Shown here piece after piece: positions 913 through 19,061 of a stretch of 19,061 nucleotides of DNA. The position numbers and the translations under genes are program-made. Positions within the stretch are counted from its first letter, which is position 1, and each line of letters begins with the position of its first letter. Source of the stretch: Gemmatimonadota bacterium (GTDB taxonomy: Bacteria > Gemmatimonadota > Gemmatimonadetes > Gemmatimonadales > Gemmatimonadaceae); the NCBI GenBank assembly GCA_031372565.1, contig JANMLN010000186.1, positions 1-19,061 on the forward strand, given 5' to 3'. The notes below the pieces were generated by a model, which saw nothing but the letters and a program-made list of their open reading frames with translations, had not been told where the DNA came from and ran no database searches.

Positions 913-953
913 GGCGCTGGTGTTGCGCACGATGCGCAATGCCAGCGCCTTTT
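913..953 (+). terminator. Rho-independent terminator after the acyl-CoA dehydrogenase
   Basis: 17-bp stem GGCGCTGGTGTTGCGCA (913-929) / TGCGCAATGCCAGCGCC (933-949) with two G-U pairs, 3-nt loop, then TTTT (950-953). Confidence 0.7.
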
Positions 954-1017
954 GCGTGCCGGCAGCGCGCCCGGTCGGGCGCGACGCGTGACGGCGTTGC
1001 TGGGCGTGCGTGGACCC

Positions 1018-1082: not shown

Positions 1083-3020
1083 ATGCGCCGCCGTCCCCCT
1101 GCCGAGCCCTACGCGCGACTGACCACGCCGCTGGTGCGCGACGATGGCGTCCTGCGACCCGCCAGCTGGGACGAAGCCATGGCGCGCGCCGCCGACGGCT
1201 TCCGACGCACGATCGACGCGCGTGGCGCGAACGCCGTCGGCATGTTCAGCTGTTCGAAGTCCACCAACGAGGTGAACTTCCTCGCGCAGAAGCTTGCAAG
1301 GCAAGTGTTCGGCAACAACAACATCGACAGCTGCAACCGAACGTGACACGCGCCCAGCGTCGTCGGTCTGGCGACGGTGTTCGGAGCGGGCGGCGGCACG
1401 AGCTCCTACGAGGAGGTCGAAGACGCCGACGTCGTCTTCCTGTGGGGATCGAACGCGCGCGAGGCGCATCCGATCTGGTTCCATCACCTGCTCAAGGGCA
1501 TCCGGCATCACGGGACGCGGCTGTACGTGATGGATCCGCGGCGGACCGCGAGCGCCCAGTGGGCCGACCAGTGGGTCGGGCTGCGGGTCGGGTCGGATAT
1601 CGCCCTCGCGAACGCGATGGCGCGCGAGATCATTCATGCCGGTCTGGCGAATCAGGCCTTCATCGCGAATGCGACGGAGCAGTTCGAGCAATATGCCGGC
1701 GCCGTCGAGTCGTACACGCTCGAGTGGGCGGAGCCGGTGACGGGGATTCCCGCGGACGTCATTCGCGAAGCCGCGCACGCCTTCGCCACGGCAGAGCGCG
1801 CGATGATCTGCTGGACCCTCGGCATCACCGAGCACCACAACGCCGTGGAGAACGTGCTGGCGCTCATCAACCTCACGCTCCTGTGCGGGCACGTCGGCCG
1901 ATGGGGCGCGGGGTGCAATCCGCTCCGTGGACAGAACAATGTGCAGGGGGGCGGCGACATGGGGGCGATCCCCAACAAGCTGCCCGGTTTCCAGGACATC
2001 GAGATCGATTTCCAGGCGCGCGCCCGCTTCGAGCAGGCGTGGGGACGACCGATCCAGCCGAAGGCCGGGTGGAACCTCACGCAGATGTTCCACGCGATGG
2101 AGCGCGGCGCGCTCTCGGCGCTCTACGTGATCGGCGAGAACCCGGCGCAGTCTGATGCCGATGCGCATCGCATCGGGGCGCTGCTCGAGGGACTCGAGCA
2201 CCTCGTCGTGCAGGAGATCTTCCTCACGAAGACCGCACAGTACGCGCACGTGGTCCTGCCGGCCGCCGCGACCTGGTGCGAGGGCGACGGAACGGTCACC
2301 AATAGCGAGCGGCGGGTGCAGCGGGTTCGACACGCGGTCGAGCCGCCTGCCGGCGCACGCGATGAACTCGCGATCCTCACGGAGATGGCGCGCCGCCTCG
2401 GGCACGACTGGGGCACGCCCACCGCTGAGTCAGTGTGGAACGAGTTCCGCGTGCTCGCGCCACACTTCGCTGGTGGCATGAGCTACGCCCGGCTCGAAGC
2501 GCTTGGTGGCATCCAGTGGCCATGCCCGGACGAGTCGCATCCCGGCACGACCTTTCTGCATGCGCGGCTCTGGGACACGCCGCGCGGCGGGCGCGCGGCA
2601 CCCTTCTCGATCGTGCATCATGACCCGCCCTGGGAAGCGCGCGATCCGCAGTATCCCTTCCTGCTCACGACGGGACGACGTCTCGAGTCGTACAACACCG
2701 GCGTGCAGTCCTCGGGCTACGCGTCACCGCTCCATCGTGGCGAGACGCTCGACATCTCGCCCGAGGACGCCCTGCAGCTCGGGCTGTCCGACGGCGATCT
2801 CGTGCGCGTGACCTCACGACGCGGCACGGTGGACGTCCCGTGCCGCATCGACACGGCGCTCCGTGCCAGCCTCGTCTTCATGACGCTGCACTTCCCGGAT
2901 GATGTTGCCACCAACCTGCTGACCATCGACGTCGCCGATCCGCGTTCGGGCACAGCCGAGTTCAAGGCGTGCGCCGTGCGCGTCGAGCCGATCGGCGTGG
3001 GCGCCGTGGCGGGGCGCTGA
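1083..3020 (+). CDS. fdhA: Selenocysteine-containing Mo/W-bisPGD formate dehydrogenase catalytic subunit (645 aa with UGA read as Sec), lacking the N-terminal 4Fe-4S domain
   Basis: GGAG RBS then ATG 1083. ORFs 939-1346 and 1377-3020 are in the same frame, separated by TGA 1344-1346 in NIDSCNRT-U-HAPSV, the Sec/Cys-His active-site position of FdhF. Also WGSNAREAHP, PLRGQNNVQG (catalytic Arg), EGDGTVTNSERRVQ, LTTGRRLESYNTG and AEFKACAV. Confidence 0.93.
1344..1376 (+). promoter_or_regulatory. Sec UGA codon and bacterial SECIS hairpin
   Basis: TGA, 11 nt, then stem CGTCGTC (1358-1364) / GGCGACG (1370-1376) closing loop GGTCT. Spacing and GGUC-containing apex resemble the E. coli fdhF SECIS. 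Confidence 0.85.
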
Positions 3021-4906
3021 TGGACGTCAAGCTGATGGACGCGCGCGCGACCGACGACGAGCAGCAGGCCGTCGACCGCGTCCTCGGTGCACCGCAGAGT
3101 CCGTGGGCGGGTGGCGCGCGCGGTGCGCACCGCGACTTTCACACGGCGACGGGCGGCGCGGCGCGTCGCCTCGAGCGCACGATGCTCTTGCCGGCCCTGC
3201 GCGCGCTGCAGGAGCGGGTCGGCTGGATCTCCGAAGGCGGCCTGAACTACGTGTGCGAGCGCCTCGATGTCCCCCCGGCCGAGGCGTGGGGGGTCGCGAC
3301 GTTCTACGCGCTGCTGAGCACCGCGCCACGGCCTGTGCGCATGCTGCATGTCTGTGATGACATCGGGTGTCGTCAGCGCGGCGCGCGGGATCTGTGCGAG
3401 GCGCTGCGATCGTCGCATGGAGAGCCGGTCGTGCATCACGCCGACGGGCATGTCGTGCTCGACGCTGCTCGCCCCGCGTGGATGACCTCGCCCTGTCTCG
3501 GGCTCTGCGATCAGGCACCGGCGGCGCTCGTGACCGATGCGGGCACGGTGCCCGACGAGCGGCTGATCGGCCACGTCAGCGTGGAGTCGGCGCGTGGTCT
3601 CATGGCGGGCGCGCCGCTGCCCGCACACGCGCCATCGTCGGCGGTGCATCCCGCTGCGGGCGATCCCGCTCGCGTGCTGCTCGCGCGCGTCGGGGTGGTG
3701 GATCCGGCGTCGTTGGACGCGTATCGTGCATCGGGCGGCTACACCGCGCTCGCGCGCGCCGTGACGCTCGGTGCGTCGGGCGTGATCGGTGAGGTGGTCC
3801 TGTCCCGACTGGCTGGGCGTGGCGGCGCGGCGTTTCCGACGGGCAAGAAGTGGGAGGCGGTTGCCGCACAGTCCGCCGGCATCAAGTATGTGGTGTGCAA
3901 TGCCGACGAGTCCGAGCCCGGCACGTTCAAGGATCGCGTGCTGCTGAGCGAGGATCCGTTTGCGATCATCGAGGCGATGACGATTGCCGGCTTCGCCACG
4001 GGTGCTACGCGCGGGTTCGTGTACATCCGCGGAGAGTATCCGCTGGCTGCCGAGCGGGTGACACGCGCCGTCGACGCGGCGCGCCAGGCCGGCTGTCTCG
4101 GCGCCAACGTTGCAGGGCACGGCTTCGCGTTCGATATCGAGGTACGGCGTGGCGCCGGTGCGTACATCTGTGGCGAGGAGACGGCGCTCTTCGAGTCCAT
4201 TGCCGGCCGACGCGGTGAACCGCGCAGCAAGCCCCCCTTCCCGGTGCACGCCGGGCTCTTCGGCAAGCCGACGGTGGTCAACAACGTCGAGACGTTGGCG
4301 AATGTGTTGCCGATCGTGCGCCATGGCGGCGCGGCGTTCGCCTCGGTCGGCAGTGGCATCTCGACGGGCACGCGACTCTGGTGCCTGAGCGGCGCCGTGC
4401 AGCGACCGGGGTTGTACGAGGCCCCGATGACGACGACGCTCCACGCGCTCATCGCACGGTCCGGCGGCGTGGCCCCGGGACGCACGCTGCGCGCCGTGCT
4501 GCTCGGTGGCGCCGCGTCCACCTTCGTGACACCGGAGCAGCTCGCGATGCCGCTCACGTTCGAAGCGGCGCGCAGTGCGGGTGCGTCGCTCGGCTCCGGT
4601 GTGGTGATGGTCTTCGATGATCAGGATGACATGGAGGATCACGTGCTGCGGATTGCGGCCTTCTTCCGCGACGAATCGTGTGGCCAGTGCGTCCCCTGCC
4701 GTGTGGGAACGGTACGACAGGAAGAGGCGCTGCACCGCTTGACGCACCGCCGGACCATCGGCTCCGTGGCGGACGAACATGCGCTCCTGGCCGAACTTGG
4801 GGCCGCGATGAAGGACGGCTCGATCTGTGGGCTGGGCCAGACGGCGTATGCCGCGGTCGAGTCGGCGATCACGACGCTGGGGCTCTTTGCCGGAGGGCGC
4901 GCATGA
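3020..4906 (+). CDS. NuoE-NuoF fusion diaphorase subunit (2Fe-2S, FMN/NADH, 4Fe-4S) of an NAD-dependent FDH, 628 aa
   Basis: ATG overlaps the upstream TGA (TGATG). NuoE part: GVATFYA, VCDDIGC...SPCLGLC. NuoF part: GRGGAAFPTGKKW, CNADESEPGTFKDR, GAGAYICGEETAL, NNVETL, ESCGQCVPCRVG...CGLG. Confidence 0.92.
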   Translation: MDVKLMDARATDDEQQAVDRVLGAPQSPWAGGARGAHRDFHTATGGAARRLERTMLLPALRALQERVGWISEGGLNYVCERLDVPPAEAWGVATFYALLSTAPRPVRMLHVCDDIGCRQRGARDLCEALRSSHGEPVVHHADGHVVLDAARPAWMTSPCLGLCDQAPAALVTDAGTVPDERLIGHVSVESARGLMAGAPLPAHAPSSAVHPAAGDPARVLLARVGVVDPASLDAYRASGGYTALARAVTLGASGVIGEVVLSRLAGRGGAAFPTGKKWEAVAAQSAGIKYVVCNADESEPGTFKDRVLLSEDPFAIIEAMTIAGFATGATRGFVYIRGEYPLAAERVTRAVDAARQAGCLGANVAGHGFAFDIEVRRGAGAYICGEETALFESIAGRRGEPRSKPPFPVHAGLFGKPTVVNNVETLANVLPIVRHGGAAFASVGSGISTGTRLWCLSGAVQRPGLYEAPMTTTLHALIARSGGVAPGRTLRAVLLGGAASTFVTPEQLAMPLTFEAARSAGASLGSGVVMVFDDQDDMEDHVLRIAAFFRDESCGQCVPCRVGTVRQEEALHRLTHRRTIGSVADEHALLAELGAAMKDGSICGLGQTAYAAVESAITTLGLFAGGRA

Positions 4907-5847
4907 CGCCGCTCGTCCAGCTCACCCGCCCCGACCGGCGACCGCGCACCGCCGTGACCTGCACCGTGAATGGGCGCGACGTCACGGTCCCCGAGGGGAC
5001 CACGATCCTCGCCGCTGCCGCGACGATCGGCGTGACGATACCGACGTTGTGCTGGCTCGAGACACTCACCCCGGTCAACGCCTGCCGACTGTGCGTGGCG
5101 GAGGTGAAGGGCGCGCGCGTGCTCGCGCCAGCCTGCGCGCGCGCCGTCGAACCCGGGATGGAGATCCTGACGGACTCGCCGCGCGTGCACCTGACGCGGA
5201 AGCTCGTGCTCGAGCTGCTGGCGTCGAGCGTGGACCTCTCGTGTGCACCCGAGCTGACGTCGCTCATGTCGGCGTACGGCGCGCGCCCTGAACGGTTTGG
5301 TCCGAGCGCTCCGGCAGGCGTTCGCCGCGGTGCGGTCACGGGGCATCATGCGCCCCCCGATCCCGCCTGCGCCGCGACGACGCTGGAACCGCCCAGGGTG
5401 GACAACGAACTCTACGTACGCGATTACGCCAAGTGCGTTCTCTGCTACAAGTGCGTCGAGGCCTGCGGCACGGACCACCAGAACACCTTCGCCATCGCCG
5501 TCGCCGGCCGCGGCTTCGATGCGCACATCTCGACCGAACTCGGCGTGCCGCTCACCGCGTCGGCCTGCGTCTACTGCGGCAACTGCGTTGCCGTCTGCCC
5601 CACGGGCGCGCTGATGGCGAAACGCGAGTTCGACTTGCGCGCGGAGGGCCGATGGGATGCTGCCGCGCAGCGCATGACCGATACGATCTGCCCCTACTGC
5701 GGTGTCGGATGCACGCTCACCCTGCATGTGCAGGATGGCGAGATCGTGAAGGCGACCTCTCCGCTCGACAACACGATCACGTTGGGCAACTTGTGCATCA
5801 AGGGACGCTTCGGTTGGCGTTTCGTCCAGAACACGGTCGGTCGATGA
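4903..5847 (+). CDS. Fe-S electron-transfer subunit (2Fe-2S + 2x4Fe-4S + molybdopterin-proximal 4Fe-4S domain), the detached N-terminal part of an FdsA/NuoG-like FDH alpha chain, 314 aa
   Basis: ATGA overlap at 4903-4906. Motifs IPTLC...ACRLC...PAC (2Fe-2S), CVLCYKCVEAC and CVYCGNCVAVCP (2x4Fe-4S), and C-terminal TICPYCGVGC...LCIKGRFGWRFV. Confidence 0.9.
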   Translation: MTPLVQLTRPDRRPRTAVTCTVNGRDVTVPEGTTILAAAATIGVTIPTLCWLETLTPVNACRLCVAEVKGARVLAPACARAVEPGMEILTDSPRVHLTRKLVLELLASSVDLSCAPELTSLMSAYGARPERFGPSAPAGVRRGAVTGHHAPPDPACAATTLEPPRVDNELYVRDYAKCVLCYKCVEACGTDHQNTFAIAVAGRGFDAHISTELGVPLTASACVYCGNCVAVCPTGALMAKREFDLRAEGRWDAAAQRMTDTICPYCGVGCTLTLHVQDGEIVKATSPLDNTITLGNLCIKGRFGWRFVQNTVGR

Positions 5848-6692
5848 GCGGACATCGCACGATGCCGCCACTCACGCGTGCGTCGCCCGTGGCGGCGCAT
5901 GCGTGGACCCGCCTCGATGGCACGGACGCCTTTCCGGCGGAGGGAGCGATCGTCGAGGAAGTGCCCGTCGCGCTCGTGTACGGAGGGCGGACCCACGTGG
6001 TCATCATGGCCACCCCCGCCGACCTCGAGGACCTGGCCGTCGGCTTCACGATCAGTGAAGGCATCGTGCAGCGCGCGCGCGAGATCACCGGGATCGCGGT
6101 CGAGCGGCATGCCGCGGGGATCGAGGTGCGCATCGGCGTGCCGGCTGCGGTCGCAGCGGCCCTCGCGTCGCGTGCGCGCGCGCTGCCGGCGCGCACGGGA
6201 TGCGGGCTGTGCGGCGTGGAGGCGATCACCGACGCGGTGCGTACGCCGCGCCTGGTCGAGTCACCGCTCGTCGTCGACGCCGCGGCGGTGTATGCCGCGG
6301 TACGCGCACTGGGTAACCGACAGGAGCTCAATCGCGACGCGCACGCGCTGCATGCCGCCGCATTCGCGCGCGCCTCGGGCGAACTGGTGTGCGTACGCGA
6401 GGACGTCGGTCGCCACAATGCGCTCGACAAGGTGCTCGGCGCCGTCATGCGCGCGGGCGGCGACTTCGCGAACGGCATGCTCGTCGTCACCAGCCGCGCC
6501 AGCGTCGAGATGGTGCAGAAAGCCGCTGCCGCCGGCGTGCCGGTGCTTGCGGCCGTCTCGCGTCCAACCGCGCTCGCCATCCGGATGGCCGACGCCTCGG
6601 GCCTCGCACTCCTCGGCCTGGTGCGGGGCGAGACCGCCAACCTGTACGCGGGCGCGCATCGCGTGCGCGCGGTCACTGTTCCCAAATGCTGA
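5844..6692 (+). CDS. fdhD: Formate dehydrogenase accessory sulfurtransferase FdhD, 282 aa
   Basis: ATGA overlap at 5844-5847. Motifs EEVPVAL, MATPADLEDLAVGF, GCGLCG, HAAA, REDVGRHNALDK, TSRASVEMVQK, SRPTALA. Confidence 0.95.
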   Translation: MSGHRTMPPLTRASPVAAHAWTRLDGTDAFPAEGAIVEEVPVALVYGGRTHVVIMATPADLEDLAVGFTISEGIVQRAREITGIAVERHAAGIEVRIGVPAAVAAALASRARALPARTGCGLCGVEAITDAVRTPRLVESPLVVDAAAVYAAVRALGNRQELNRDAHALHAAAFARASGELVCVREDVGRHNALDKVLGAVMRAGGDFANGMLVVTSRASVEMVQKAAAAGVPVLAAVSRPTALAIRMADASGLALLGLVRGETANLYAGAHRVRAVTVPKC

Positions 6693-6699
6693 CACACCC

Positions 6700-7779
6700 G
6701 TGAGCGTACTCATCAACCTGCAGGAGTACGAGGCACGCTCCACCGACCTGCTCGCGCCGATGGTGGCGGCGTACTATGCCGGCGGCGCCAACGACGAGGT
6801 GACGCTGCGTGAGGCGCCACGGGCGTGGGAGCAGCTGCGGCTCGTGCCGCGCATTCTGGTGGACGTGACTGCGCTCGACGTGGGCACCACGGTGCTCGGA
6901 CATCGCATCGCGATGCCGGTGATGACCGCACCGTGCGCACTCAACCGGATGGCGCACGCCGACGGCGAGTCGGGCGTCGCGCGCGCCGTGCACGCGGCCG
7001 GGGTCATCCAGGTCTTGAGCACGATGGCCAGCGAGTCGCTCGAGACGGTGGCGGCGGCATCGCCCGGACCCAAGTGGTTCCAGCTGTATTGCTACAAGGA
7101 GCGCGAGCTGACGGCCGATCTGGTGCGGCGTGCCGAGGCGGCAGGATACGTGGCGCTCTGTCTGACCGTGGACGTGCCGGTCCTGGGGCGCCGTGAGCGC
7201 GAGATCCGCACGGGCTTTCATGCGCCGCCCGGGATCTCGATCGCCAATCTCGAGCGGTACGGCAATGCGGCGGATACGATGGGCGGTGCGGCCGGGGCGT
7301 CCGGGCTGGCGAGTTACGTCGCCGCGCGCTGGGATGCGTCGCTCACGTGGGAGGCGATCGCCCGGCTCCGCTCGATCACGACGCTTCCGATCGTGCTCAA
7401 GGGGGTGCTGGCCGCGGATGATGCGCTCCGCGCGGTCGAGCACGGCGTGGATGGCCTCGTCGTGAGCACGCACGGCGGTCGCCAGCTCGACACCGTGGTG
7501 TCCACGGCCAGTGCGCTACCCCGCATCGTCGATGCGGTGGCCGGACGCGCCGAGGTGTACGTGGACGGCGGCATTCGTCGCGGCACGGACGTGCTGAAGG
7601 CGCTTGCGCTCGGTGCGCGGGCCGTCTGGATCGGGCGGCCGTACCTGTGGGGACTCGCCGTCAACGGGGAAGCCGGCGTTCGCCACGTGCTCGAGCTGCT
7701 GCGCGACGAACTCGCCCTCGCGATGGCGCTGAGTGGGCGCGCCAGCGTGGCGTCACTCGGGCGCGACCTCGTCGCATAA
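6700..7779 (+). CDS. FMN-dependent alpha-hydroxy-acid oxidase/dehydrogenase (glycolate/lactate oxidase family), 359 aa
   Basis: GTG 7 nt after the fdhD stop. Motifs YYAGGANDE, WFQLY, LTVD, PIVLKG, VSTHGGRQLD, VDGGIRRGTDVLKALALGA, GRPYLWGL. Confidence 0.93.
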   Translation: MSVLINLQEYEARSTDLLAPMVAAYYAGGANDEVTLREAPRAWEQLRLVPRILVDVTALDVGTTVLGHRIAMPVMTAPCALNRMAHADGESGVARAVHAAGVIQVLSTMASESLETVAAASPGPKWFQLYCYKERELTADLVRRAEAAGYVALCLTVDVPVLGRREREIRTGFHAPPGISIANLERYGNAADTMGGAAGASGLASYVAARWDASLTWEAIARLRSITTLPIVLKGVLAADDALRAVEHGVDGLVVSTHGGRQLDTVVSTASALPRIVDAVAGRAEVYVDGGIRRGTDVLKALALGARAVWIGRPYLWGLAVNGEAGVRHVLELLRDELALAMALSGRASVASLGRDLVA

Positions 7780-8331: not shown

Positions 8332-11300
8332 CTAGAACACCACCGGCTGTACCTTGCGCTGCCGGAGTCGCTCGTTGAAGGCGTCGAGCTCCTTCTTGAG
8401 CAGCTGGTCGATGCGTGCCTTGACCGCGACCAGCTGCTCGTGCAGCACACCGGCCACTTCCTGCTGCTGCCTCGTTGGCGGCTGGTCGGCGCCGTCGAGG
8501 CCGCTGCCGAGGTAGAGCAGCTGTTCGGTGATGCGCATCGGCCACCGGAGCTGGTCCTGCCCGCGCCCGGTCGAGCGCAGCTGCCGCAAGAACTCTTCCT
8601 GCGCCGTGAACTTCTTCTCCATCGAGTCGGTCGCCGCGCGCAGGTCGGCGGACTTCGCATCGTCCTTGAGCAGGTCGCGCAGCTGCGCGAGTTGTGCCCG
8701 CACCCCCTGCACGGTGTTGATCTGCTCCACGGCATCGTTCACATCGGCCATCACGGCCTTGGTCGCGGCAATCCCCTGTGCGATTTCGGTGTCGGTCGCC
8801 GGGTAGTTGGGGTCCTTGCGCACCTCGAGCGTCTCGGTCAGCTCCTGCGTCCCGACCTGCACCTTCACGGTGTACCGGCCCGGCGGCACCAGCATCGACC
8901 AGCGCCCGATCCACGGCGCCGGCTTCGCATCGTATCCGATCTGTGGCGCCGGCGAGTACAGCGGCGTGGTGCGCACCTTGGTCTCCTTGGTGCGATCGGA
9001 CTGCAGGTCCCACCACATGCGGTTCATCCCGGCCTTGCCCGCCGCCTTCATGGTCCGCCACGTCGCGCCCGCCGCATCCGTGAAGCTCACGGTGATCGAG
9101 TCCTTCGGCTCCGCCTTGAGCCAGAGGTGGAGCGACGCGCCGTACGGTGGATCATCACCCGCGTTCGGGTCCTCGTTGAAGGCGAAGCGCGACTCCATCG
9201 TCTTGAAGCGATAGGCCGCGCGTGGCGCGAACAGGTGTGCGTCCTTGGCGGCAACATCCACCGCGTTCCGGAGCGGTGTGATGTCGTCGAGAATCCAGAA
9301 GCCGCGTCCGTACGTCGCGACCACCAGGTCCGAGAAGTGCTCCTGCACCGTGATCCAGTAGACCGGTGCGTGCGGCAAGTTGTTCTGCAGCGGCTGCCAG
9401 TTGGCGCCGTCATCGAACGAGACGTAGAGCCCGTTCTCCGTGCCCGCGTACAGCAGCCCGCGCTTCACGGGGTCCTCACGCACCACGTGCGCGTACGACA
9501 GCGGCGACTTCGGGATGCCGTTCGTGATCTGCGTCCACGTCTTGCCGAAGTCGCTGGTCTTGTAGATCCATGGATCGCGATTGTTCACCTGATGGCCATC
9601 GACCGTCAGGTACGCGGTGCCGGCGTCGTACCGGGAAGGTTCGATGTTCGAGATGGTCCCCCACTCGAGCAGCCCCGGAATGTTCTTCGTGACGTTGGTC
9701 CACGACGTGCCGCCGTCGCGCGAGAGGTGCACGAGGCCGTCATTCGTGCCCGCCCAGATCAGCCCCTTCTGCAGTCGGGACTCCGCGATCGCGAACACGA
9801 CCCCCGCGTACTCGACGCCGATGTTGTCGGGGGTCAGGCCGCCCGAGCGGATCTGCTTCGTCTTGTCGTTGCGGGTGAGGTCCGGTCCCAGCTCCTGCCA
9901 GGAACGTCCACCGTCGGTGGTGGCCATCACATACTGCGACCCGACGTACACCTTGTTGTGGTCGTGCGGGCCGATGGTGAGCGGGAAGGTCCAGACGAAG
10001 CGGTACTTGAGCGAATCCGCCGCCCAACCGATCGTCGCCTGCGGCCAGACCTCCGCGTACGTCGCGATGCCCGTCTTCACGTCGTAGCGCGACACGATGC
10101 CGCCGACGGAGCCGAACCCCGACGCGCTCGACCAGATCAGGTCGTTGTTCTCGGGATCCGGCGTGGCCCAACCGCTCTCGCCGCCGCCCACCGTGAACCA
10201 ATGACCGCGCGTGATGTTGCCGGTACCGGGGAAGCCGAAATCATTCCGCGTCCGCGAGTTGCTCGGCCCGCAGGCACTCGGCCCGTCCTGACGGTTGCCG
10301 CACACCGTGTACGGAATGCGCGTATCGGTCGTCACGTGGTACATCTGCGCAACCGGCAGTTGCAAGCGGAACCAGCTCTTGCCGCGGTTCTGCGTGATCG
10401 AGATGCCGTCGTCGTGGCTGACGATGATCCGGTTGCCATTGGTCGGATCGAACCAGATGTCGTGATGATCGCCGGCCGGCGTTTCCACGACGGACGGATC
10501 GATCACCGTCTTGCCACCGTCGAGTGTCTTCGCCCAGTTCGCGCTGAGGAAGTAGGCCTCGTCCTGATTGTCCGGCGACACGCCCATGCGGTTGTAGTAG
10601 TGCGTGCGCCCGGCGAGCTGCCGGTCGTAGTTCACGAGCTCCCACGTCTCACCCGCGTTGTCGGAGCGCCAGAGGCGGCCGTTGTCGGGTTCGCGGATGT
10701 TCGTCGCCGGGACGCCGTCGCCCGTCTCGATGAGGGCGTAGATGCGGTTCGAGTTCGCCTTGGTCACGCCGAGGCCGATCTTGCCGACGAACTTCCGTGG
10801 CAATCCATGCTCCGTGAGGCGCTTCCACGTGGCACCGCCATCCGTCGACTTCCAGATGCCGGAGCCTGCACCACCCGAGGTGCGCCCCCACGTCTTGATC
10901 TCGACCTGCCACATGGCCGCGTAGACGATGCGCGAGTTGTTCGGGTCCATGACCACGTCGATGCCGCCCGTGGAGTCGTTCACGAACAGCGTCTTCTCCC
11001 AGCTCTTGCCGCCGTCCATCGTCTGGTAGATGCCGCGGTCCGGTGACGGACCGTAGGCAAAGCCGAGCACCGCGACGACCACGTGGTCCGTATTGCGCGG
11101 GTCGATGGCGATGCGAGCGATACGGCCCGAGTTCTCGAGTCCGGCCTTCTGCCACGACTTGCCGGCATCGATCGACTTGTACATGCCGACGCCGGCGGAG
11201 ATGTGCGACCGAATGAACGGCTCACCGGTGCCTGCCCAGACCACGTTGGCATCACCCGGCGCAACGGCGATCGAGCCGAACGACGACACCGGGAGATCAT

Positions 11301-11568
11301 CCGCGATCGCGGACCAATGGATGCCGCCATCGGTGGTCTTCCAGATGCCGCCGGACGCCGCACCGCCGTAGTACGTCATCGGGTCACCGGCGACACCGGC
11401 AATCGACGTGATGCGATTGCCGACCGGCCCGATGTGCCGGTACTTCATCGACGCGAGTTGCGCGCTTTCCACACGCGGCGCGGGGGTGGCCGCCGGGGTG
11501 CGGCGTTGGGCGGAGGCGCCGAGCGGTAGGCACACGCTGGCGACGAGGAGCAGACGGCGAGTCGACAT
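8332..11568 (-). CDS. Secreted BNR/Asp-box beta-propeller protein (VPS10/sortilin-like, often annotated glycosyl hydrolase/sialidase), about 1078 aa
   Basis: Signal peptide MSTRRLLLVASVCLPLGASA-Q. Many S/T-x-D-x-G-x-T/S-W Asp-boxes (TTDGGIHW, SIDAGKSW, STDGGATW, SRDGGTSW, SFDDGANW), plus DHHDIWFDP, LVVATYGRGFWILDD and a helical C-terminal tail. Confidence 0.9.
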   Translation of the reverse strand: MSTRRLLLVASVCLPLGASAQRRTPAATPAPRVESAQLASMKYRHIGPVGNRITSIAGVAGDPMTYYGGAASGGIWKTTDGGIHWSAIADDLPVSSFGSIAVAPGDANVVWAGTGEPFIRSHISAGVGMYKSIDAGKSWQKAGLENSGRIARIAIDPRNTDHVVVAVLGFAYGPSPDRGIYQTMDGGKSWEKTLFVNDSTGGIDVVMDPNNSRIVYAAMWQVEIKTWGRTSGGAGSGIWKSTDGGATWKRLTEHGLPRKFVGKIGLGVTKANSNRIYALIETGDGVPATNIREPDNGRLWRSDNAGETWELVNYDRQLAGRTHYYNRMGVSPDNQDEAYFLSANWAKTLDGGKTVIDPSVVETPAGDHHDIWFDPTNGNRIIVSHDDGISITQNRGKSWFRLQLPVAQMYHVTTDTRIPYTVCGNRQDGPSACGPSNSRTRNDFGFPGTGNITRGHWFTVGGGESGWATPDPENNDLIWSSASGFGSVGGIVSRYDVKTGIATYAEVWPQATIGWAADSLKYRFVWTFPLTIGPHDHNKVYVGSQYVMATTDGGRSWQELGPDLTRNDKTKQIRSGGLTPDNIGVEYAGVVFAIAESRLQKGLIWAGTNDGLVHLSRDGGTSWTNVTKNIPGLLEWGTISNIEPSRYDAGTAYLTVDGHQVNNRDPWIYKTSDFGKTWTQITNGIPKSPLSYAHVVREDPVKRGLLYAGTENGLYVSFDDGANWQPLQNNLPHAPVYWITVQEHFSDLVVATYGRGFWILDDITPLRNAVDVAAKDAHLFAPRAAYRFKTMESRFAFNEDPNAGDDPPYGASLHLWLKAEPKDSITVSFTDAAGATWRTMKAAGKAGMNRMWWDLQSDRTKETKVRTTPLYSPAPQIGYDAKPAPWIGRWSMLVPPGRYTVKVQVGTQELTETLEVRKDPNYPATDTEIAQGIAATKAVMADVNDAVEQINTVQGVRAQLAQLRDLLKDDAKSADLRAATDSMEKKFTAQEEFLRQLRSTGRGQDQLRWPMRITEQLLYLGSGLDGADQPPTRQQQEVAGVLHEQLVAVKARIDQLLKKELDAFNERLRQRKVQPVVF

Positions 11569-11628
11569 GCAGCACTCGGGGCGAATGTCAGGGAGCACCG
11601 TCCGGGCGTGGACGGCGCTGCGCGTTGA

Positions 11629-11854: not shown

Positions 11855-12286
11855 TCACGACGCGGCGCGTGCCCCTGACCGGGCGCGCGCCGCGTCGAGC
11901 GTTTGGCCGTCGTCCGCCGCAAGCGCCCAGAGCAGCAGGACGGCACAGAAGAGCGGCAGCGACGAGAAGAACACGACGTTGCCTCCGGTCATCCACAGCG
12001 CCCACGGATCCACGACCGAACGCCAGACACCGAGCAGCGTCGCGCCGGTCATGAGCGCCAGCACGGGGTACGCCACGCGACGCCAGAGTCCGACGATCAC
12101 CAGCAGCGCGAGCACGACCTGCGCCACACCGATCAGCGGCATGAGGGATTCGCTGGACAGGAGGCCGGCGTAGAAGATCGAGGCCACCTTGGCCCCGTGC
12201 GCAGGGTGCACGAGCTTGTCGATGCCCCAGACCGCGGCAAAGCCGCCGAGTGAGATACGGAGAGCGGAGAGAGCATATGGGCGCAT
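11855..12286 (-). CDS. DoxX-family membrane protein (alternative start 12328)
   Basis: LRISLGGFAAVWGIDKL matches the DoxX N-terminal R...G..K pattern; GVAQVVLALLVIVGLWRR; four hydrophobic segments. Confidence 0.75.
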   Translation of the reverse strand: MRPYALSALRISLGGFAAVWGIDKLVHPAHGAKVASIFYAGLLSSESLMPLIGVAQVVLALLVIVGLWRRVAYPVLALMTGATLLGVWRSVVDPWALWMTGGNVVFFSSLPLFCAVLLLWALAADDGQTLDAARARSGARAAS

Positions 12287-12424
12287 CTCCAACCTAGGCG
12301 GCACCGGTCGGTCCGGTTCCGTGACCATCGCGCTCTTGCGGCCGCTCGCCGTCACGCTCAACTTGGGAGGCGCAGTAAACCCGAACAAACACCGACATCT
12401 TCTTCAACGTGCAGGAGTCGTCCC

Positions 12425-12922
12425 ATGTCCGGACCGATCGCGTCTTCCCTGATTCCAGAACTCCAGCACGAGGCCGTCTCGACGCGCAAGCTGTTCGAGC
12501 GACTTCCCGTGGACAAGCGTGACTGGACGCCCCACCCCAAGTCGTTCGCGCTCGGCAAGCTGGCGACGCACGTGGCGCAGCTGGTCGGGTGGATCTCCGT
12601 GACCTGTCAGACGACCGAGCTCGACATGTCACAGCCGTTTCCGCCGCCAGCGTGGGCATCCAACGCGGAGCTCGTCGCCTTCTTCGATGCACAGGTCGCG
12701 CAGGCGGTGAAGGCGCTCGGCGCGACGAGCGACGCGGACATGATGGTCCCGTGGACGCTCAAGATGGGCGACAAGGTGTTCTTCTCGATGCCGCGCATCC
12801 AGGTCATCCGCAGCATGGCATTCAACCACTTCGTGCACCATCGCGGGCAGCTGTCGCTCTACCTGCGCATGAACGACGTGCCGCTGCCGAACATGTACGG
12901 ACCGACGGCAGACGAGCAGTAG
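12425..12922 (+). CDS. DinB/YfiT-superfamily four-helix-bundle protein, 165 aa
   Basis: AGGAG RBS. WTPHPKSFALGKLATH and NHFVHHRGQLSLYLR give the His triad; C-terminal PNMYGPTADE. Confidence 0.9.
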   Translation: MSGPIASSLIPELQHEAVSTRKLFERLPVDKRDWTPHPKSFALGKLATHVAQLVGWISVTCQTTELDMSQPFPPPAWASNAELVAFFDAQVAQAVKALGATSDADMMVPWTLKMGDKVFFSMPRIQVIRSMAFNHFVHHRGQLSLYLRMNDVPLPNMYGPTADEQ

Positions 12923-13809: not shown

Positions 13810-15018
13810 TCACCGGCGGCGCAGGGCGTAGAACCCCGAGTCGCACGCCACATAGACGCGCTGGGCGTCGTACGCAGGTGGCGTCAGCACCCACGGCTCC
13901 GACGCCGGGTTGGTTTGCCAGATAACGGCGCCCGTGCGGGCGACAATCTCCTGGAGCAAGCCGTTCCCGTACATGGCCAAGAAGGTGGAGTCGGTCGGCG
14001 TGCCCTGATGACGCGGCGAGCCTTGGTTGCGCGCGCGCGACCAGAGTACGACGCCCGTCCGCGCGTCGATCCCCATCTGCTCGTCGAGCGCGGACCCGGC
14101 GATGATCACCGAGCCGACCACCGCGATCGGGCGATTGTCGAGGCGGTATGTGTTGCTCGGCACTCGCGGACTCGTCCAGGCAATCGAGCCCGAGTCGCGG
14201 TCGAACGCGTAGATGACGCCGTCCACGCCAGAAACGATCACGAGGTTCATGAAGCGATCAATGCCATCCAGCTGACCACCGCTCTGGTCAGTCGGCAACT
14301 CCCTCGCGAGCTCCTTCTGCCACAGAATCCGCCCCGAGGCGGCATCGACGGCCGCGACGCCTCCCGTCACAGGAAGCGACATGCGACGGTACGTGGCGAC
14401 GACCACGCCATTGGACGACACGCAGCCCCACACGATCGCCCGGTCCGGGTCTTGCGCCAGCACCACGCGCCATGCCTCGCGTCCGGTCGCGAGCTTCACC
14501 GCCACCAACGTGCCGTTCTGGGAGCCACCGAACACGCGCACGGAATCGGTGGCGAGCGTGTAGATCCCGGCCAATGGTTGATCGGGGTTCACCGAGTCCC
14601 GATATGTCCAGGCTGAGCGACCCGTGGCGACGTCGTACGCGAAGAGTTGGAAGTCGGGATACAGCACGAGCCCACCGACAACCAGGAGCCGCGATGCCCC
14701 CGGAAAGCCGACCCCCTTGCGTGGACTCGTCCAACGCACGCTACCATCCGACTTCCGGACCGCGTAGATTTGATGGTGGGCGCTGACGAAGTAGACGGTC
14801 GAGTCGTCCACGGCCGGCGCCGTGTAGTCCGCCGTTTCCCTGACGCGCCACAATGCCCGCGCGAAGGTGCCCGGGCCGACGCTCGGGAGGCCGCCAGAAC
14901 CGGTGGCCTCGTCACCGCATCCGGACACGAGTGCCAGCACGATACCCAACGCAAGCGCCAGCGCACGCCACTGGCCGCGCCGGGAGCCCGCGCTGCAGCC
15001 GTCAACCGTTCTACTCAC
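13810..15018 (-). CDS. PQQ-type (BamB-like) beta-propeller lipoprotein, about 400 aa; start uncertain (GTG 15018 or 15033)
   Basis: Lipoprotein signal RRGQWRALALALGIVLALVSG-C. Repeated AxDxxxGxxxW blades: AVRKSDGSVRW, AYDVATGRSAW, AVDAASGRILW, AFDRDSGSIAW, GIDARTGVVLW. Confidence 0.85.
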   Translation of the reverse strand: MSRTVDGCSAGSRRGQWRALALALGIVLALVSGCGDEATGSGGLPSVGPGTFARALWRVRETADYTAPAVDDSTVYFVSAHHQIYAVRKSDGSVRWTSPRKGVGFPGASRLLVVGGLVLYPDFQLFAYDVATGRSAWTYRDSVNPDQPLAGIYTLATDSVRVFGGSQNGTLVAVKLATGREAWRVVLAQDPDRAIVWGCVSSNGVVVATYRRMSLPVTGGVAAVDAASGRILWQKELARELPTDQSGGQLDGIDRFMNLVIVSGVDGVIYAFDRDSGSIAWTSPRVPSNTYRLDNRPIAVVGSVIIAGSALDEQMGIDARTGVVLWSRARNQGSPRHQGTPTDSTFLAMYGNGLLQEIVARTGAVIWQTNPASEPWVLTPPAYDAQRVYVACDSGFYALRRR

Positions 15019-16450
15019 AGGCGATGGGTCCACACGTGCCCACGGTGACGACCTTCGACCGCGTGACCAGCTCAGCCCCAGCGGTGACGGTGACGGAGAC
15101 CGTGAAGTCCGATGACCCGGCCACGTAGGTGAAGGATTCGGCTGCCCCCGATTGCATCAAGATGCCGTCCACGCGCCACGAGAAGTTCGGCAGCCCTATT
15201 CCGCCATAGGCGGACACGGAATACTCGCCCGAGTACCCAGGCTCCAAGTAGCCCGGCCCCGCGAGGCTACTGACTGTCAGGCTCTGCGGCGGAGCGAGAC
15301 GGAGCGGCGCGCCGGCGAGCTTCAGCGACTTCTCCAGTTCGTTCCTGGTGGTCCCATGCTGGGTCAACTCACCGTGTCCGATGTCGCCGAGCGCCACGTG
15401 CGGAAAGGCCCCCGTCCCTTGAATTCTGGTGCGCCATTCCTCAAACAGTCCGTCGCTCGTCGAGCACGAGCCGCCGGTGGCGTTGTTGGTCCAAGTGGCT
15501 CCAATGAGAATGCACCAGCGATAGTCGACATCCCGGAATTGCAACGCGCCCCCCAGCCAGAGCGGCGCCAGCGAATTGTAGGTGCCGTAGTAGAAGCTGT
15601 CCCACGGAGTGACGCCGCTGTATTGCAGATACTTCCACATATAAAACAGATCCAGCAGGATCGTCGTTGCGCTGCAGACCTGTGCAACCTGCGCTGTCCC
15701 CCCCGCCGCGCGGCAGTAACTGCCGCGACTGGATGAGATGTTGCCGGACATGGACTGACGATACGGGACCTGCGCCTCCTCGTTGATCACGCGCGTGGTG
15801 GATCGCAGATCCGTCATGAAAGGGCTGTCGGGGTCCCCATCGGGCAGCACGAGGGAGGACGCGTTCCCCACAAAGAGCGAAGTTGCAAGTTGAGCAACCT
15901 TGTCCAAAACGACGTCGTACGTGCCCTCCAGCATCATTTCCTCCCAGTCGTCCAACCGTCCTCGCGGGGCAATCCAAGGCAAGGTCGCGGCAAAGGTGAG
16001 GTTCGAGATCGTGTTGCTCGCAGTTCCGTTCACGATGGATTTCGCGATTGGAGCCCCTTCGTTCGGGGTCCCCACCGTGATCAGCGCCTTCCACCGCGAG
16101 CCCTGCCTCACCGCCTCGCGCCCGACGATCCCGCCGAAACTGTGACCGACCAGAAACGCCCGTGAAGGGCCTGGCGCGTAGCCGCGCCGAAGCGAGTCCG
16201 CCTGGTCAACGAACCTGCGCTGCCAACCGGTGTTCGCCCTCGCCATGTGCACGTTGAAGACTGGCGACAACTGCACCGCCATCGAATACCAGGTGCCATC
16301 ATCGCCCCCGAACCCGTGCTGCCAGACGATGGTGTCCTGTTGACCGAGCGCGGCGCCGAGCGGAACGGCGGCGATGAGAACCGCCGCCTGGATCGCGGCG
16401 CGGGTGCGATGCGGCAATAGGAACATGATCGGGCTCCGCGTGGAGGGCAT
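15011..16450 (-). CDS. Secreted alpha/beta-hydrolase (lipase/esterase, PGAP1/DUF676-like) with C-terminal Ig/PKD-like domain
   Basis: Signal peptide ending AALG-Q; IVWQHGFGG (oxyanion region), LVGHSFGG (nucleophile elbow), LITVGTPNEGAPIA, SDGL and IGHGE (candidate Asp/His). Beta-rich tail FSWRVDG...FTVSVTVT. Confidence 0.85.
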   Translation of the reverse strand: MPSTRSPIMFLLPHRTRAAIQAAVLIAAVPLGAALGQQDTIVWQHGFGGDDGTWYSMAVQLSPVFNVHMARANTGWQRRFVDQADSLRRGYAPGPSRAFLVGHSFGGIVGREAVRQGSRWKALITVGTPNEGAPIAKSIVNGTASNTISNLTFAATLPWIAPRGRLDDWEEMMLEGTYDVVLDKVAQLATSLFVGNASSLVLPDGDPDSPFMTDLRSTTRVINEEAQVPYRQSMSGNISSSRGSYCRAAGGTAQVAQVCSATTILLDLFYMWKYLQYSGVTPWDSFYYGTYNSLAPLWLGGALQFRDVDYRWCILIGATWTNNATGGSCSTSDGLFEEWRTRIQGTGAFPHVALGDIGHGELTQHGTTRNELEKSLKLAGAPLRLAPPQSLTVSSLAGPGYLEPGYSGEYSVSAYGGIGLPNFSWRVDGILMQSGAAESFTYVAGSSDFTVSVTVTAGAELVTRSKVVTVGTCGPIACE

Positions 16451-17515: not shown

Positions 17516-17885
17516 CGGGAGGAACTCCAATGCGGTTGGTGGCGAGCTTCCCGAGTTCCCACGACGCTGCGCTCCTGTCGAAGTGACGGACGGGTTCGAG
17601 GAAGGAGAAGCGACTTGTCGTCGCACCAGTTGTCGTCGCACGCGTTTCCCTCGGGATGTTGGCGCTGCGGCGACTGGTCGAGGGACGGGCGTCAGGTCGG
17701 AGGGTGGCCGAAGTTGCACGAGGTGCAGGCCGACATGCACCACGATGCGTGCGGAACGGGGCGCAACACGGGCCCTGCGGCACGGTACGCCGGCACACCT
17801 GAAGCCGACAGGGCACCGGGTTCGTCCCACCGGTACGCGCTCCTTATGCGTTCGGGCCCGGCGGCCCGGGGACCACAGCCGACAG

Positions 17886-18725
17886 CTACCGCTGCGCGGG
17901 CGTCGGATAACGTGTGAGCTTCTGCACGCGACAGTTGACGATCTTGCCTACCCACAGTTCGTCTTCGCTCGGGCAGGCGATCTGCTGCACCCAGCCGAAC
18001 TCGCCCGCCTTCTTGCCGGCCTCGCCCATGACGCCGAGCACCTTGCCGTCGAGGGTGAGCTTGTAGATGCGCTCCGGCACGGCGCCGGCGCTGTCGAGGT
18101 ACTGCGTGGGCCGCGGCGTGATGCAGATGGCCCACGGCGCGCCGCTCGTGGCCAGCGGGTTGGCGCCGGCGCGCGGCATGGCGTTGAAGAGGACGTTGGG
18201 CTCCTTGGTGTACGGCACATCAATGGTCATCACGCGGAGCAGCTTGCCCGTGGGGTCGAACACCTGGATGCGCCGGTTGGTCCGGTCGCCCTCGTAGATG
18301 TTCCCCTGCGCGTCGCTCGCGATCGTGTGCAGGATGTTGAACTGCCATGGCTCCTTGCCGCGCTCTCCCCACGTGGTGATCCAGCGCCCCTCGGGGCTCA
18401 CTTTCACCACGCGGGAGTTGGTGTATCCGTCGGCCACGAAGATGTTGCCGGCCAAGTCCCAGGTGACGTCGGTCGGGCTCGCGAACCCTCCCCAGCGCGG
18501 CGGCGGTGTGGGCGCGCCCGGCACGTGGGGCTCCGCTTCTTCCACCGCCTCGTCTCGCCGGCCGAGCACCAGGAGGAAGATACCGGAGGGGGAAAACGTC
18601 ACGATCATGTTCGTGCCTTCGTCCGACGTCCAGATTTTGCCGACGCGGCCCACGCGCACCGTGTTCGCGAAGGAGAACCCGTACAGTTCCTTCCCCATCT
18701 CGCGGATGAACCTCCCATCAGGAAA
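17886..18725 (-). pseudogene. 5'-truncated, decaying NHL-repeat protein of the peptidyl-alpha-hydroxyglycine alpha-amidating lyase (PAL)-like family
   Basis: PTDVTWDLAGNIFVADGYTNSRVVK, GDRTNRRIQVFD, GAPWAICIT. Similarity extends upstream to FPDGRFIREMGK, then meets an in-frame TGA with no signal peptide or first blade. Several substitutions at usually conserved sites. Confidence 0.75.
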
Positions 18726-18760
18726 GGAACGTCAATCGTTCGATTGGGGTCGGTCGACTC

Positions 18761-18797
18761 TTCGTCGAACGTTCGTCGAACGTTCGTCGAGCGTTCG
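18761..18797. repeat. 11-bp tandem repeat, about 3.4 copies
   Basis: TTCGTCGAACG TTCGTCGAACG TTCGTCGAGCG TTCG. Confidence 0.7.
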
Positions 18798-18922
18798 GCG
18801 CGATCGCCGACCTCGCCAGCGCCGCGTGACGGGCGGCGGCGTGCCCGGCGTCTCACACGCGCGCCGCGCGCGCCGCACGAGCGGAGGTCCGCGTGCGCCG
18901 CGCGGGTGCGGTGGTGCGGGAC

Positions 18923-19061
18923 TGAAGTGGCTCCGGTCTTCTGAACAGCCGGCTATGTAGACAGCAGGGCTCCCCGGGCGTTACATCGCCCTATCCCCAA
19001 GGAGCACCCCATGTCCCGTCGTCCCCGTCGCAATCACGCCCCCGCCTTCAAGGCCAAGAAG
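18923..19061 (+). mobile_element. Left end of an IS3-family insertion sequence, cut by the window end
   Basis: Begins TG (TGAAGTGGCTCCGGTCTTCTGAACAG), as IS3-family ends do, and is followed by AAGGAG and an OrfA-like start. Confidence 0.75.
19011..19061 (+). CDS. IS3-family transposase OrfA, N-terminal 17 codons
   Basis: AAGGAG RBS; MSRRPRRNHAPAFKAK matches the typical OrfA start (RRxHSxxFKAKVAL). Confidence 0.8.
   Translation, partial: MSRRPRRNHAPAFKAKK

Follow-up and report, generated by a model that had tools for sequence, protein, structure and literature searches.

A predicted selenocysteine formate dehydrogenase operon with the proximal 4Fe-4S domain on the electron-transfer partner of the catalytic chain

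The window analysed here, a 19,061-nucleotide stretch of contig JANMLN010000186.1 from a Gemmatimonadota bacterium (GCA_031372565.1), carries an operon in which the alpha chain of a formate dehydrogenase (FDH) is cut immediately after its cofactor-proximal 4Fe-4S domain. The product, made up of three chains, is probably a soluble, cytoplasmic, NAD(H)-linked selenocysteine (Sec) FDH of the FdsABG/FDH1 kind in which the proximal cluster and its lysine would be supplied in trans. We infer NAD+ as the acceptor, formate oxidation as the direction and the choice of metal.

The operon and the cut through its alpha chain

The operon consists of four translationally coupled genes on the + strand (g1, g2, g3 and fdhD), whose start and stop codons overlap as ATGA at all three junctions in the window (g1/g2, g2/g3, g3/fdhD). 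Its 5' boundary is marked by a terminator-like hairpin with a T-run (913..959, + strand), which has a 17-pair stem at 913-949 followed by TTTTG. The last gene, fdhD (5844-6692, + strand), encodes a 282-aa FdhD/NarQ-family sulfurtransferase and cofactor-insertion chaperone (PF02634, E 1e-70). An FdhD gene was also found in the examined flank of 34 of the 80 related loci used for comparison, all of which come from metagenome-assembled genomes. An LldD-like gene 3' of the operon was rejected as a conserved member, since none of the 80 loci gave a match at E 1e-10.

The first gene, g1 (1083-3020, + strand), was assigned from its translation, Pfam and the NCBIfam Fdh-alpha profile TIGR01591 as the catalytic Mo/W-bisPGD subunit of an FDH, 645 aa long with Sec at position 88 and with the N-terminus MRRRPPAEPYARLTTPLVRDDG. 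Pfam places only Molybdopterin (12-437, PF00384, E 5e-67) and Molydop_binding (526-631, PF01568, E 5e-25) on this protein. No Fe-S domain was found in the Pfam scan of g1, which bears out the view, taken in an earlier sequence-only reading, that the Mo/W-Sec subunit is devoid of one. Its active-site motifs, U88-H89 and R282-G-Q, belong to the C/U-H and R-G-Q class described as canonical for FDHs (PMC8808070); C(U)88, H89 and R282 to G289 are invariant in 15 of 15 aligned g1 sequences. Among solved structures, the best relative of g1 is FdhF of the hydrogen-dependent CO2 reductase (HDCR; 7qv7_S, 504 bits), and FdsA scores 426-429 bits. Sixteen full-length fused FdsA-like relatives reach 467-527 bits, and a seventeenth (P0211) reaches 364 bits with a match limited to g1 residues 3-449. 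These scores speak neither for nor against a chimeric origin of g1, in which an FdhF-type subunit would have been recruited independently of g3.

In canonical enzymes, the Molybdop_Fe4S4 piece forms the N-terminus of the catalytic chain. Here this domain (FS0/A1; PF04879, E 9e-18) occupies residues 258-310 (5674..5832, + strand) of the 314-aa g3, a HoxU/NuoG-like Fe-S subunit by Pfam and NCBIfam, which is encoded at 4903-5847 (+ strand) with ATG 4903 as its true start. The g3 C-terminus, ...CPYCGVGC...LCIKGRFGWRFVQNTVGR, ends at 5847. Pfam, TIGR01591 and alignments to FdsA agree on the position of the cut, which is exactly where the sequence-only reading had put it. Positions 1-50 of TIGR01591 correspond to g3 residues 261-310 and positions 52-672 to g1 residues 11-634; thus, the cut loses nothing. 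On Rhodobacter capsulatus FdsA (6tg9_A), g3 covers residues 19-303 and g1 residues 308-932, and on the fused relative P0205 the corresponding stretches are 4-274 and 277-895. The score of g1 against TIGR01591 (645.6 bits) falls under the curated equivalog cutoff of 666.25, a deficit consistent with the absent first 51 positions. The domain scan that the same reading had proposed as a check separates the halves cleanly, with Fe4S4 on g3 and the catalytic domains on g1.

That reading had also named a frameshifted 4Fe-4S domain upstream of 1083 as one finding that would speak against it. None was found. The upstream ORF (2-886) encodes an acyl-CoA dehydrogenase (Pfam Acyl-CoA_dh_1 and Acyl-CoA_dh_C) with its stop at 886; it is followed by the hairpin and by a GGAG 8 nt 5' of the g1 ATG. 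A tblastn search of the window with the g3 Fe4S4 domain returned one copy, at 5653-5844 (E 5e-43), with the next best match at E 0.4, and the same kind of search detected no second copy in the 80 related loci (best secondary match E 0.51). The conserved lysine lies, as had been supposed, on the partner chain: C263, C266, C270, C298 and K300 of g3 are unchanged in all 14 homologues compared. The Cys-x-Lys pair (C298, K300) sits in LCIKGRFG and aligns with C293/K295 of R. capsulatus FdsA, counted back from residue 303. The domain content, the exact cut point and the conserved ligands are all directly observed.

The electron-transfer subunits and their closest known systems

Between the two halves lies g2 (3017-4906, + strand), a 629-aa protein in which, according to Pfam and NCBIfam, a NuoE-like [2Fe-2S] domain is fused to a NuoF-like FMN/NADH/[4Fe-4S] part. 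Translation, Pfam and NCBIfam together establish the order g1-g2-g3, that is, the swapped halves around a NuoE-NuoF fusion that had been described from the sequence. The Pfam domains of g2 are 2Fe-2S_thioredx (PF01257), Complex1_51K (PF01512), SLBB and NADH_4Fe-4S (PF10589); its motifs comprise the NuoE Cx4C...Cx3C, those of the NuoF FMN/NADH sites and that of the 4Fe-4S cluster, and its profile matches include TIGR01959 (E 1e-129) and the FdsG model PRK05988 (E 4e-15).

In g3, Fer2_4, two Fer4 and the Molybdop_Fe4S4 domain account for an N-terminal [2Fe-2S] cluster, two ferredoxin-type [4Fe-4S] clusters and the C-terminal one. The four Cys of each of these four clusters are, together with K300, invariant in the 14 homologues. 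The Pfam scan gave no PF10588 match for the His-Cys3 cluster (A4), and its site reads ELLASSVDLS in 14 of 14 g3 homologues where FdsA has H-x3-C-x2-C-x5-C. For R. capsulatus FDH, the A4 ligands are given as His117/Cys121/Cys124/Cys130, and PMC7171172 locates the cluster at the dimer interface, away from the path between bis-MGD and FMN. A single-chain AlphaFold model of g3 from a 14-row alignment was too poor to interpret: it reached a mean pLDDT of 52 and a pTM of 0.45, and both the ferredoxin and the Fe4S4 regions scored under 50.

The affinities of g2 bear on the acceptor. It is closer to HydB of electron-bifurcating hydrogenases (7q4v_B, 390 bits) than to FdsB (345 bits for 6vw7_B, 295 for 6tg9_B), and therefore a plain NAD+ acceptor is not certain. 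The same three-piece architecture could instead serve a bifurcating/confurcating or ferredoxin-linked FDH/CO2 reductase of the HydABC/HylABC-FdhF kind, a reading favoured by the fact that HydB and related chains (7q4v_B, 9bov_B, 8oh5_B, 8a6t_B, 9n5u_B, 7t2r_B) outscore FdsB for g2, that g3 finds its top NCBIfam match in the N-terminus of the NADH-dependent [FeFe] hydrogenase group A6, and that HDCR FdhF is the nearest solved relative of g1. Bifurcating HydB subunits, however, carry a C-terminal ferredoxin-type domain with its clusters, whereas g2 ends at NADH_4Fe-4S (543-619 of 629) without one; the operon lacks genes for a ferredoxin, a hydrogenase or an additional HydC-like protein, and the carriers among the 80 loci are, by name, mostly soil lineages, presumably aerobes. 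Such a reading is improbable.

The preferred reading, an NAD(H)-linked enzyme, finds a close counterpart in FdsABG(D) of R. capsulatus and Cupriavidus necator (6tg9, 6vw7), which has in common with the window operon the NuoG/HoxU-like region, FS0, the Mo-pterin domains, the NuoF-like FMN subunit, the NuoE-like 2Fe-2S domain and an operon FdhD (FdsC) gene. The alpha subunit of FdsABG(D) is nevertheless a single polypeptide, while here it is divided between g3 and g1 with g2 in between; its NuoE- and NuoF-like parts form two chains, whereas g2 joins them. The FdsABG gene order is fdsGBACD, unlike the window operon, in which the catalytic part comes first and no FdsD was noticed. Furthermore, FdsABG(D) has cluster A4 (His117/Cys3), lost in g3, and its metal ligand is reported as Cys386 (PMC7171172), in place of the Sec predicted here.

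Methylobacterium extorquens FDH1 (W, Fdh1AB; 7e5z, 7vw6) is soluble and encoded by two genes. Its beta subunit, 572 aa long in the PDB and taken here to be a NuoE-NuoF fusion, matches g2 across the NuoF part. Unlike g1 and g3, its alpha subunit (989-995 aa), which has a Cys ligand, is a single chain that holds FS0 together with the catalytic domains. In clostridial HylABC-FdhF2, as far as the account in PMC5736913 goes, the Sec-containing FdhF-type subunit is separate from HylA and from the NuoF- and NuoE-like subunits, so that a HoxU/NuoG-like Fe-S subunit (HylA) stands apart from the Sec catalytic chain as in the window operon. The cut in HylABC-FdhF2 and HDCR falls before FS0, whereas here FS0 has moved with the Fe-S subunit: residues 11-12 of g1 align with 61-62 of 7qv7_S and 1aa6_A, and those chains therefore carry about 60 further N-terminal residues. 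Formylmethanofuran dehydrogenase FwdB/FwdD is also a Mo/W-bisPGD enzyme with a naturally split catalytic chain, but there the C-terminal domain is split off, and in the window operon the N-terminal FS0 domain. To our knowledge, characterised Mo/W-bisPGD enzymes with a proximal cluster always hold the cluster and the lysine on the catalytic chain. Searches of open-access papers and preprints retrieved no description of the split layout and no biochemical characterisation of it; the sequence-only reading knew of none either.

Selenocysteine codon, distribution and origin

An in-frame TGA at codon 88 of g1 (1344-1346, + strand; context ...DSCNRT-U-HAPSV) is predicted to encode Sec as the metal ligand, and TGA stands at this codon in every one of the 69 related loci that cover the position, as in the window. 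It is followed by a SECIS-like stem-loop (1349..1388, + strand) with an inner 7-bp helix (1358-1364/1370-1376), a GGUCU loop and a flanking outer helix; the hairpin begins 14 nt past the UGA. In the inner helix, 96.5% of cells are paired over 66 distinct sequences, against 28-66% in slid controls. Two pairs show changes on both sides, and compensatory changes are few. No family reached threshold in an Rfam scan of the window, hence no curated SECIS family was matched; a tRNA scan of the window returned nothing, hence no tRNA-Sec, and selA, selB, selC and selD are absent from the window.

Confinement of Sec to the split form was considered and rejected. Fused Sec forms exist: P0385, P0393 and P0415 are fragments from the N-terminal side of one-chain enzymes and break off immediately ahead of the Sec position. 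Cys is the metal ligand in 17 of 17 full-length fused relatives, a sample biased against Sec forms because gene callers truncate them. A search among 50%-identity representatives yielded mostly fragments and little that was new beyond the Sec-truncated fused forms.

The layout is common in soil bacteria. Judged by name, the 80 loci include 33 from Acidobacteriota, 19 from Gemmatimonadota and 8 from Actinomycetota, and span at least seven phyla overall; no cultured carrier was identified among them. The sequence-only reading, which had pointed to a similar layout in actinobacterial genomes, was thus only partly right: the layout does occur there, in the 8 loci mentioned, but is not mainly actinobacterial. 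Genes g1, g2 and g3 are colinear in 71 of the 73 loci with enough upstream DNA, and because this order is kept the arrangement is not accidental. The two exceptions, L064 and L072, have g2-g3 without g1 within 3.6 and 6.1 kb upstream, respectively. Start and stop of g2 and g3 overlap in 56 of 77 loci, and the g1-to-g2 junction is no longer than 20 nt in 44 of 65. In 14 of these 65, the gap between g1 and g2 exceeds 100 nt, and some of these loci have unrelated genes inserted there (Ser/Thr kinase-like, transglycosylase-like, methyltransferase-like, PIN-like, or for a small Cys-rich protein), none of which is an extra subunit.

The loci with a distant or missing g1 could be taken to mean that the g3 Fe4S4 domain is an off-path vestige like N7 of NuoG, with the g1 pterin passing its electrons to another partner; DMSO/TMAO reductases are cluster-less and send electrons straight from pterin to partner. 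This is very unlikely. The domain's four Cys and its Lys do not vary, which is what a working FS0, not a relic, would show; the chain is divided precisely at the domain boundary without loss of a residue; g1 adjoins g2-g3 in 71 of 73 loci; and g1 falls in the FdhF/FdsA group, whose solved members among the listed matches to g1 all have residues ahead of the matched region, where FS0 sits. Likewise, at first sight an in-frame stop in a gene whose product lacks an expected domain suggests a broken gene, such as a pseudogene left by rearrangement and cut short by a premature stop in a decaying or misassembled locus. That explanation is already refuted by conservation: the order and the TGA recur across the phyla with a conserved hairpin, proteins from different phyla are 59-77% identical, the genes overlap at their start and stop codons, and a database search found at least 8000 g3-like proteins.

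The family also extends beyond the 80 loci. In species-representative genomes, 594 of 600 candidate stretches were confirmed. In 53 database clusters (893-991 aa) g2 and g3 are fused into a single protein whose C-terminus is again the Fe4S4 domain, in 2 clusters g3 is fused to FdhD, and none of the best 120 short relatives carries a Molybdopterin domain. By these sequence criteria, the Fe4S4 domain belongs to the electron module. In the phylogeny, the 91 rows with an Fe-S module ending after the Fe4S4 domain form one clade (SH-aLRT 100), the chain ending there in all except the g3-FdhD fusions P0128 and P0189. This split clade lies within the fused FDH alpha chains in which the off-path His-ligated cluster had already been lost. 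The conserved gene order, the conserved UGA with its hairpin and the single origin of the architecture are, like the cut itself, matters of direct observation.

Proposed mechanism and significance

In the proposed enzyme, g1 would bind a Mo- or W-bis-pyranopterin, and U88, His89 and Arg282 would form the formate site. The whole wire would reside in g3, with the proximal [4Fe-4S] cluster (FS0/A1) and its Cys-x-Lys, two ferredoxin-type [4Fe-4S] clusters and a [2Fe-2S] cluster, while g2 would contribute the NuoF [4Fe-4S] cluster, FMN and the NADH site along with the NuoE-like [2Fe-2S]. By homology to one-chain enzymes and by synteny, we infer that g3 docks on g1, its last ~55 residues presumably occupying the place that the N-terminus takes in a one-chain enzyme. 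Since the proximal cluster is on a partner chain, the step from pterin to FS0 would cross a subunit interface; from there electrons would run through g3 and g2 to FMN and NAD+. FdhD would sulfurate and deliver the cofactor.

A more speculative proposal, which we regard as unlikely, is that fission and gene-order swap together act as a selenium checkpoint. Failed Sec insertion at codon 88 would release only an 87-residue cofactor-free peptide, and the ribosome would never reach the overlapping stop/start signals that couple g2, g3 and fdhD to g1, so the flavin/Fe-S module would be made only alongside successful Sec decoding. The cell would be spared the cost of four Fe-S clusters in g3 and of two more plus FMN in g2, and no truncated Fe-S alpha fragment would compete for the diaphorase. 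A one-chain enzyme in the fdsGBACD order would have neither protection. If true, the Sec-metal subunit would be an Fe-S-free cartridge, exchangeable without rebuilding the wire.

The split enzyme represents a large natural family in which the proximal cluster and the lysine have shifted to the electron-transfer partner, and offers a natural test of how far the covalent link between pterin and FS0 matters. An Fe-S-free Sec-metal cartridge with a separable wire could also serve as a modular template for the engineering of FDHs and CO2 reductases. Current annotation conceals the enzyme: g3 homologues are named "2Fe-2S iron-sulfur cluster-binding protein" or "YjgC", and ordinary gene callers cut g1 at the UGA, so metabolic reconstructions from soil genomes likely miss it. 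The operon flags a predicted Sec-dependent formate enzyme that is widespread across Acidobacteriota, Gemmatimonadota, Chloroflexota, Actinomycetota and Planctomycetota.

The divided alpha chain and its operon

The alpha chain of this formate dehydrogenase (FDH) is divided between the first and third genes of a tightly packed operon. Translation places g1, the catalytic Mo/W-pterin part, at 1083-3020, the NuoE-NuoF fusion g2 at 3017-4906 and the HoxU/NuoG-like Fe-S protein g3 at 4903-5847, followed by fdhD at 5844-6692 (translation and junction sequence), all on the plus strand. Each start overlaps the preceding stop in an ATGA at all three junctions, and the g1 ATG is preceded by GGAG. Upstream, an acyl-CoA dehydrogenase gene (Pfam) ends at 886 and is followed by a terminator-like hairpin (913-949). 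The G+C content of the window is about 68%.

In Pfam, g1 contains only Molybdopterin and Molydop_binding domains, g2 combines NuoE-like and NuoF-like parts, and g3 carries Fer2_4 and two ferredoxin-type 4Fe-4S motifs before closing with 55 residues of Molybdop_Fe4S4, the domain of the proximal [4Fe-4S] cluster FS0. The curated Fdh-alpha model TIGR01591 is cleanly divided between g3 and g1, positions 1-50 matching g3 261-310 and positions 52-672 matching g1 11-634. The same cut appears against the solved structure of R. capsulatus FdsA (g3 to residues 19-303, g1 to 308-932) and against the fused one-chain relative P0205 (4-274 and 277-895). The motif LCIKGRFG, with C298 and K300, is located on g3 and is invariant among its homologues. 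The Fe4S4 domain occurs once in the window (next best match E 0.4), and no second copy was found in 80 related loci (best secondary match E 0.51). The sequence-only reading, in which the alpha chain is cut after its 4Fe-4S domain, the halves stand in swapped order around the NuoE-NuoF fusion and g1 lacks any Fe-S domain, is thus accurate, and the alternative of a 4Fe-4S domain encoded upstream of 1083 is excluded by these domain, cut-point, ligand and second-copy checks.

Directly after fdhD lies a plus-strand gene (6700-7779; PF01070, E 2e-132) whose product resembles LldD or glycolate oxidase and is an FMN-dependent alpha-hydroxy-acid dehydrogenase/oxidase. The gene is probably outside the FDH system, since a counterpart is missing from all 80 loci compared. 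The remaining products of the window are a 1088-aa BNR/Sortilin-Vps10 repeat protein (8332-11598, minus), a PQQ-like beta-propeller protein (13810-15033, minus), an alpha/beta hydrolase (15011-16450, minus), a DinB-family protein (12425-12922, plus) and a DoxX protein (11855-12388, minus). Several long ORFs, e.g., 17583-18944, have no Pfam match. No connection with the FDH operon is seen for any of these.

Distribution and origin of the split

The split arrangement marks a family and is no accident. Searching the database with g3 returned at least 8000 g3-like proteins, of which the best 120 are 310-356 aa long and 69-100% identical, with PF04879 at the end and no PF00384. At least 594 of 600 listed candidate stretches in species-representative genomes were confirmed. 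The 80 loci kept for comparison, all from metagenome-assembled genomes, are assigned by record title to Acidobacteriota (33), Gemmatimonadota (19), Chloroflexota (11), Actinomycetota (8), Planctomycetota (5), Eisenbacteria (2), Dormibacterota (1) and Saccharimonadales (1). The last is a 4 kb contig (L050) with a g2-g3-fdhD fragment whose g3 groups in the tree with one from Chloroflexota; the contig was probably mis-binned and does not reflect a genuine occurrence in reduced-genome Saccharimonadales.

The order g1-g2-g3 is found in 71 of the 80 loci, and seven of the nine exceptions are truncated by a contig end; the other two (L064, L072) have g2-g3 without g1 in the 3.6 and 6.1 kb upstream. 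Start and stop overlap at the g2-to-g3 junction in 56/77 loci. The g1-to-g2 junction spans at most 20 nt in 44/65 and more than 100 nt in 14/65, some loci carrying unrelated insertions (e.g., kinase-like, transglycosylase-like or PIN-like genes). Two Chloroflexota loci (L061, 5265-5912; L080, 4262-4783) encode a small conserved Cys-rich protein (...CSGCGL..EGGV.GCQ...) between g1 and g2.

The longer relatives of g3 comprise 53 clusters of 893-991 aa in which g2 and g3 are fused with Fe4S4 still C-terminal, two g3-FdhD fusions (P0128, 606 aa; P0189, 615 aa) and 33 classical one-chain alpha subunits (39-48% identity). Fusion chains of about 945 aa occur among database proteins P0124-P0199 and in loci L004, L008 and L009; a fused g2-g3 frame is present in three or four of 78 loci, L029 being doubtful. 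A g3-FdhD fusion would hold the cofactor-sulfurating chaperone near FS0, at the expected docking place of the catalytic subunit.

A quick maximum-likelihood tree of the g3 region (112 rows, SH-aLRT support only) was rooted on one-chain forms keeping the His-Cys3 [4Fe-4S] cluster (A4 in R. capsulatus FdsA), whose rows do not form one side of a branch. The split architecture has a single origin: the 91 rows in which Fe4S4 closes the Fe-S module (followed by FdhD in the two g3-FdhD fusions) form one clade (SH-aLRT 100), nested in a 102-row clade (SH-aLRT 100) whose one-chain members also lack the His-cluster motif. In the likely sequence of events, A4 was lost first; the chain then split behind FS0 and its catalytic part came to stand in front; later the Fe-S piece was repeatedly fused anew, to NuoEF (at least three times in the tree) or to FdhD. 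Phyla mainly cluster but are mixed in places, and the g3 of the window groups with Vicinamibacterales and Gemmatimonadaceae sequences. The g1 scores (467-527 bits against full-length one-chain relatives, 364 against P0211, a partial match, and 504 against stand-alone FdhF) do not discriminate a history shared with g3 from a separate one.

Selenocysteine, electron wire and proposed enzyme

Codon 88 of g1 is TGA (DSCNRT-U-HAPSV), as is its equivalent in all 69 loci covering the position. Starting 14 nt 3' of the TGA, a 7-bp hairpin encloses a GGUCU loop; its pairing holds in 96.5% of cells (66 distinct sequences), and slid controls give 28-66%. Changes on both strands of the stem are limited to two pairs, which fits a coding stretch under strong conservation. 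The hairpin presumably resembles the SECIS loop of E. coli fdhF; an Rfam scan gave no match for it. One-chain Sec forms exist as well, so selenocysteine is not confined to the split form. His89 of g1 is invariant in the g1 alignment, as is the Arg of RGQNNVQG, a His and R-G-Q pattern that PMC8808070 assigns to the canonical FDH motif class.

All Cys ligands of the [2Fe-2S], the two ferredoxin-type [4Fe-4S] clusters and FS0 are retained across the g3 homologue alignment. The His-Cys3 cluster is missing, its site reading ELLASSVDLS in 14/14 aligned sequences. PMC7171172 describes A4 of R. capsulatus FDH (His117, Cys121, Cys124, Cys130) as lying at the dimer interface, off the bis-MGD-to-FMN pathway. 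Its loss leaves the wire intact but suggests an oligomeric state differing from that of R. capsulatus FDH. In place of the cluster stands a conserved insert, about 25 residues long, in which G-H-H is invariant. The surrounding segment (g3 residues ~106-165, window 5218-5400) is Cys-free, with invariant Y125, P129, R131, G147-H148-H149, P152 and D167-N168, and exceeds by about 25 residues its counterpart in the nearest one-chain relatives also devoid of the His cluster; it may form a new interface or a metal site.

g2 has the NuoE Cys pairs and the FMN/NADH and 4Fe-4S motifs of NuoF, and Pfam detects no C-terminal ferredoxin domain. Its closest solved relatives are HydB proteins of bifurcating hydrogenases, ahead of FdsB. 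Since HydB residue 9 aligns at g2 residue 111, the 2Fe-2S domain in the N-terminal third (window 3017-3700) may occupy either the NuoE/FdsG position or the N-terminal thioredoxin-like position of HydB/FdsB.

The evidence best supports a three-chain, NAD(H)-linked Sec-FDH of the cytoplasm. Its anatomy, conservation and single origin are established by the sequences, and we infer g1-g3 docking, electron acceptor, reaction direction and metal. The C-terminal FS0 domain of g3 would complete g1 in trans, as the sequence-only reading had proposed; the structure model of g3 is of low confidence.

The nearest known splits are HylA/FdhF and FwdB/FwdD. With HylA and FdhF, the cut lies before FS0, whereas here it lies after it; in FwdB/FwdD, the C-terminal domain is separate, whereas here it is the N-terminal FS0 part. 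No description of the present layout was found within open-access papers and preprints, nor by term look-up in a 2026 review on metal-dependent FDHs (PMC13397495). Where names are given among the best 120 g3-like proteins, they are "(2Fe-2S)-binding protein" or "YjgC". The split FDH is both widespread and mis-annotated, and is relevant to molybdoenzyme and selenoprotein specialists.
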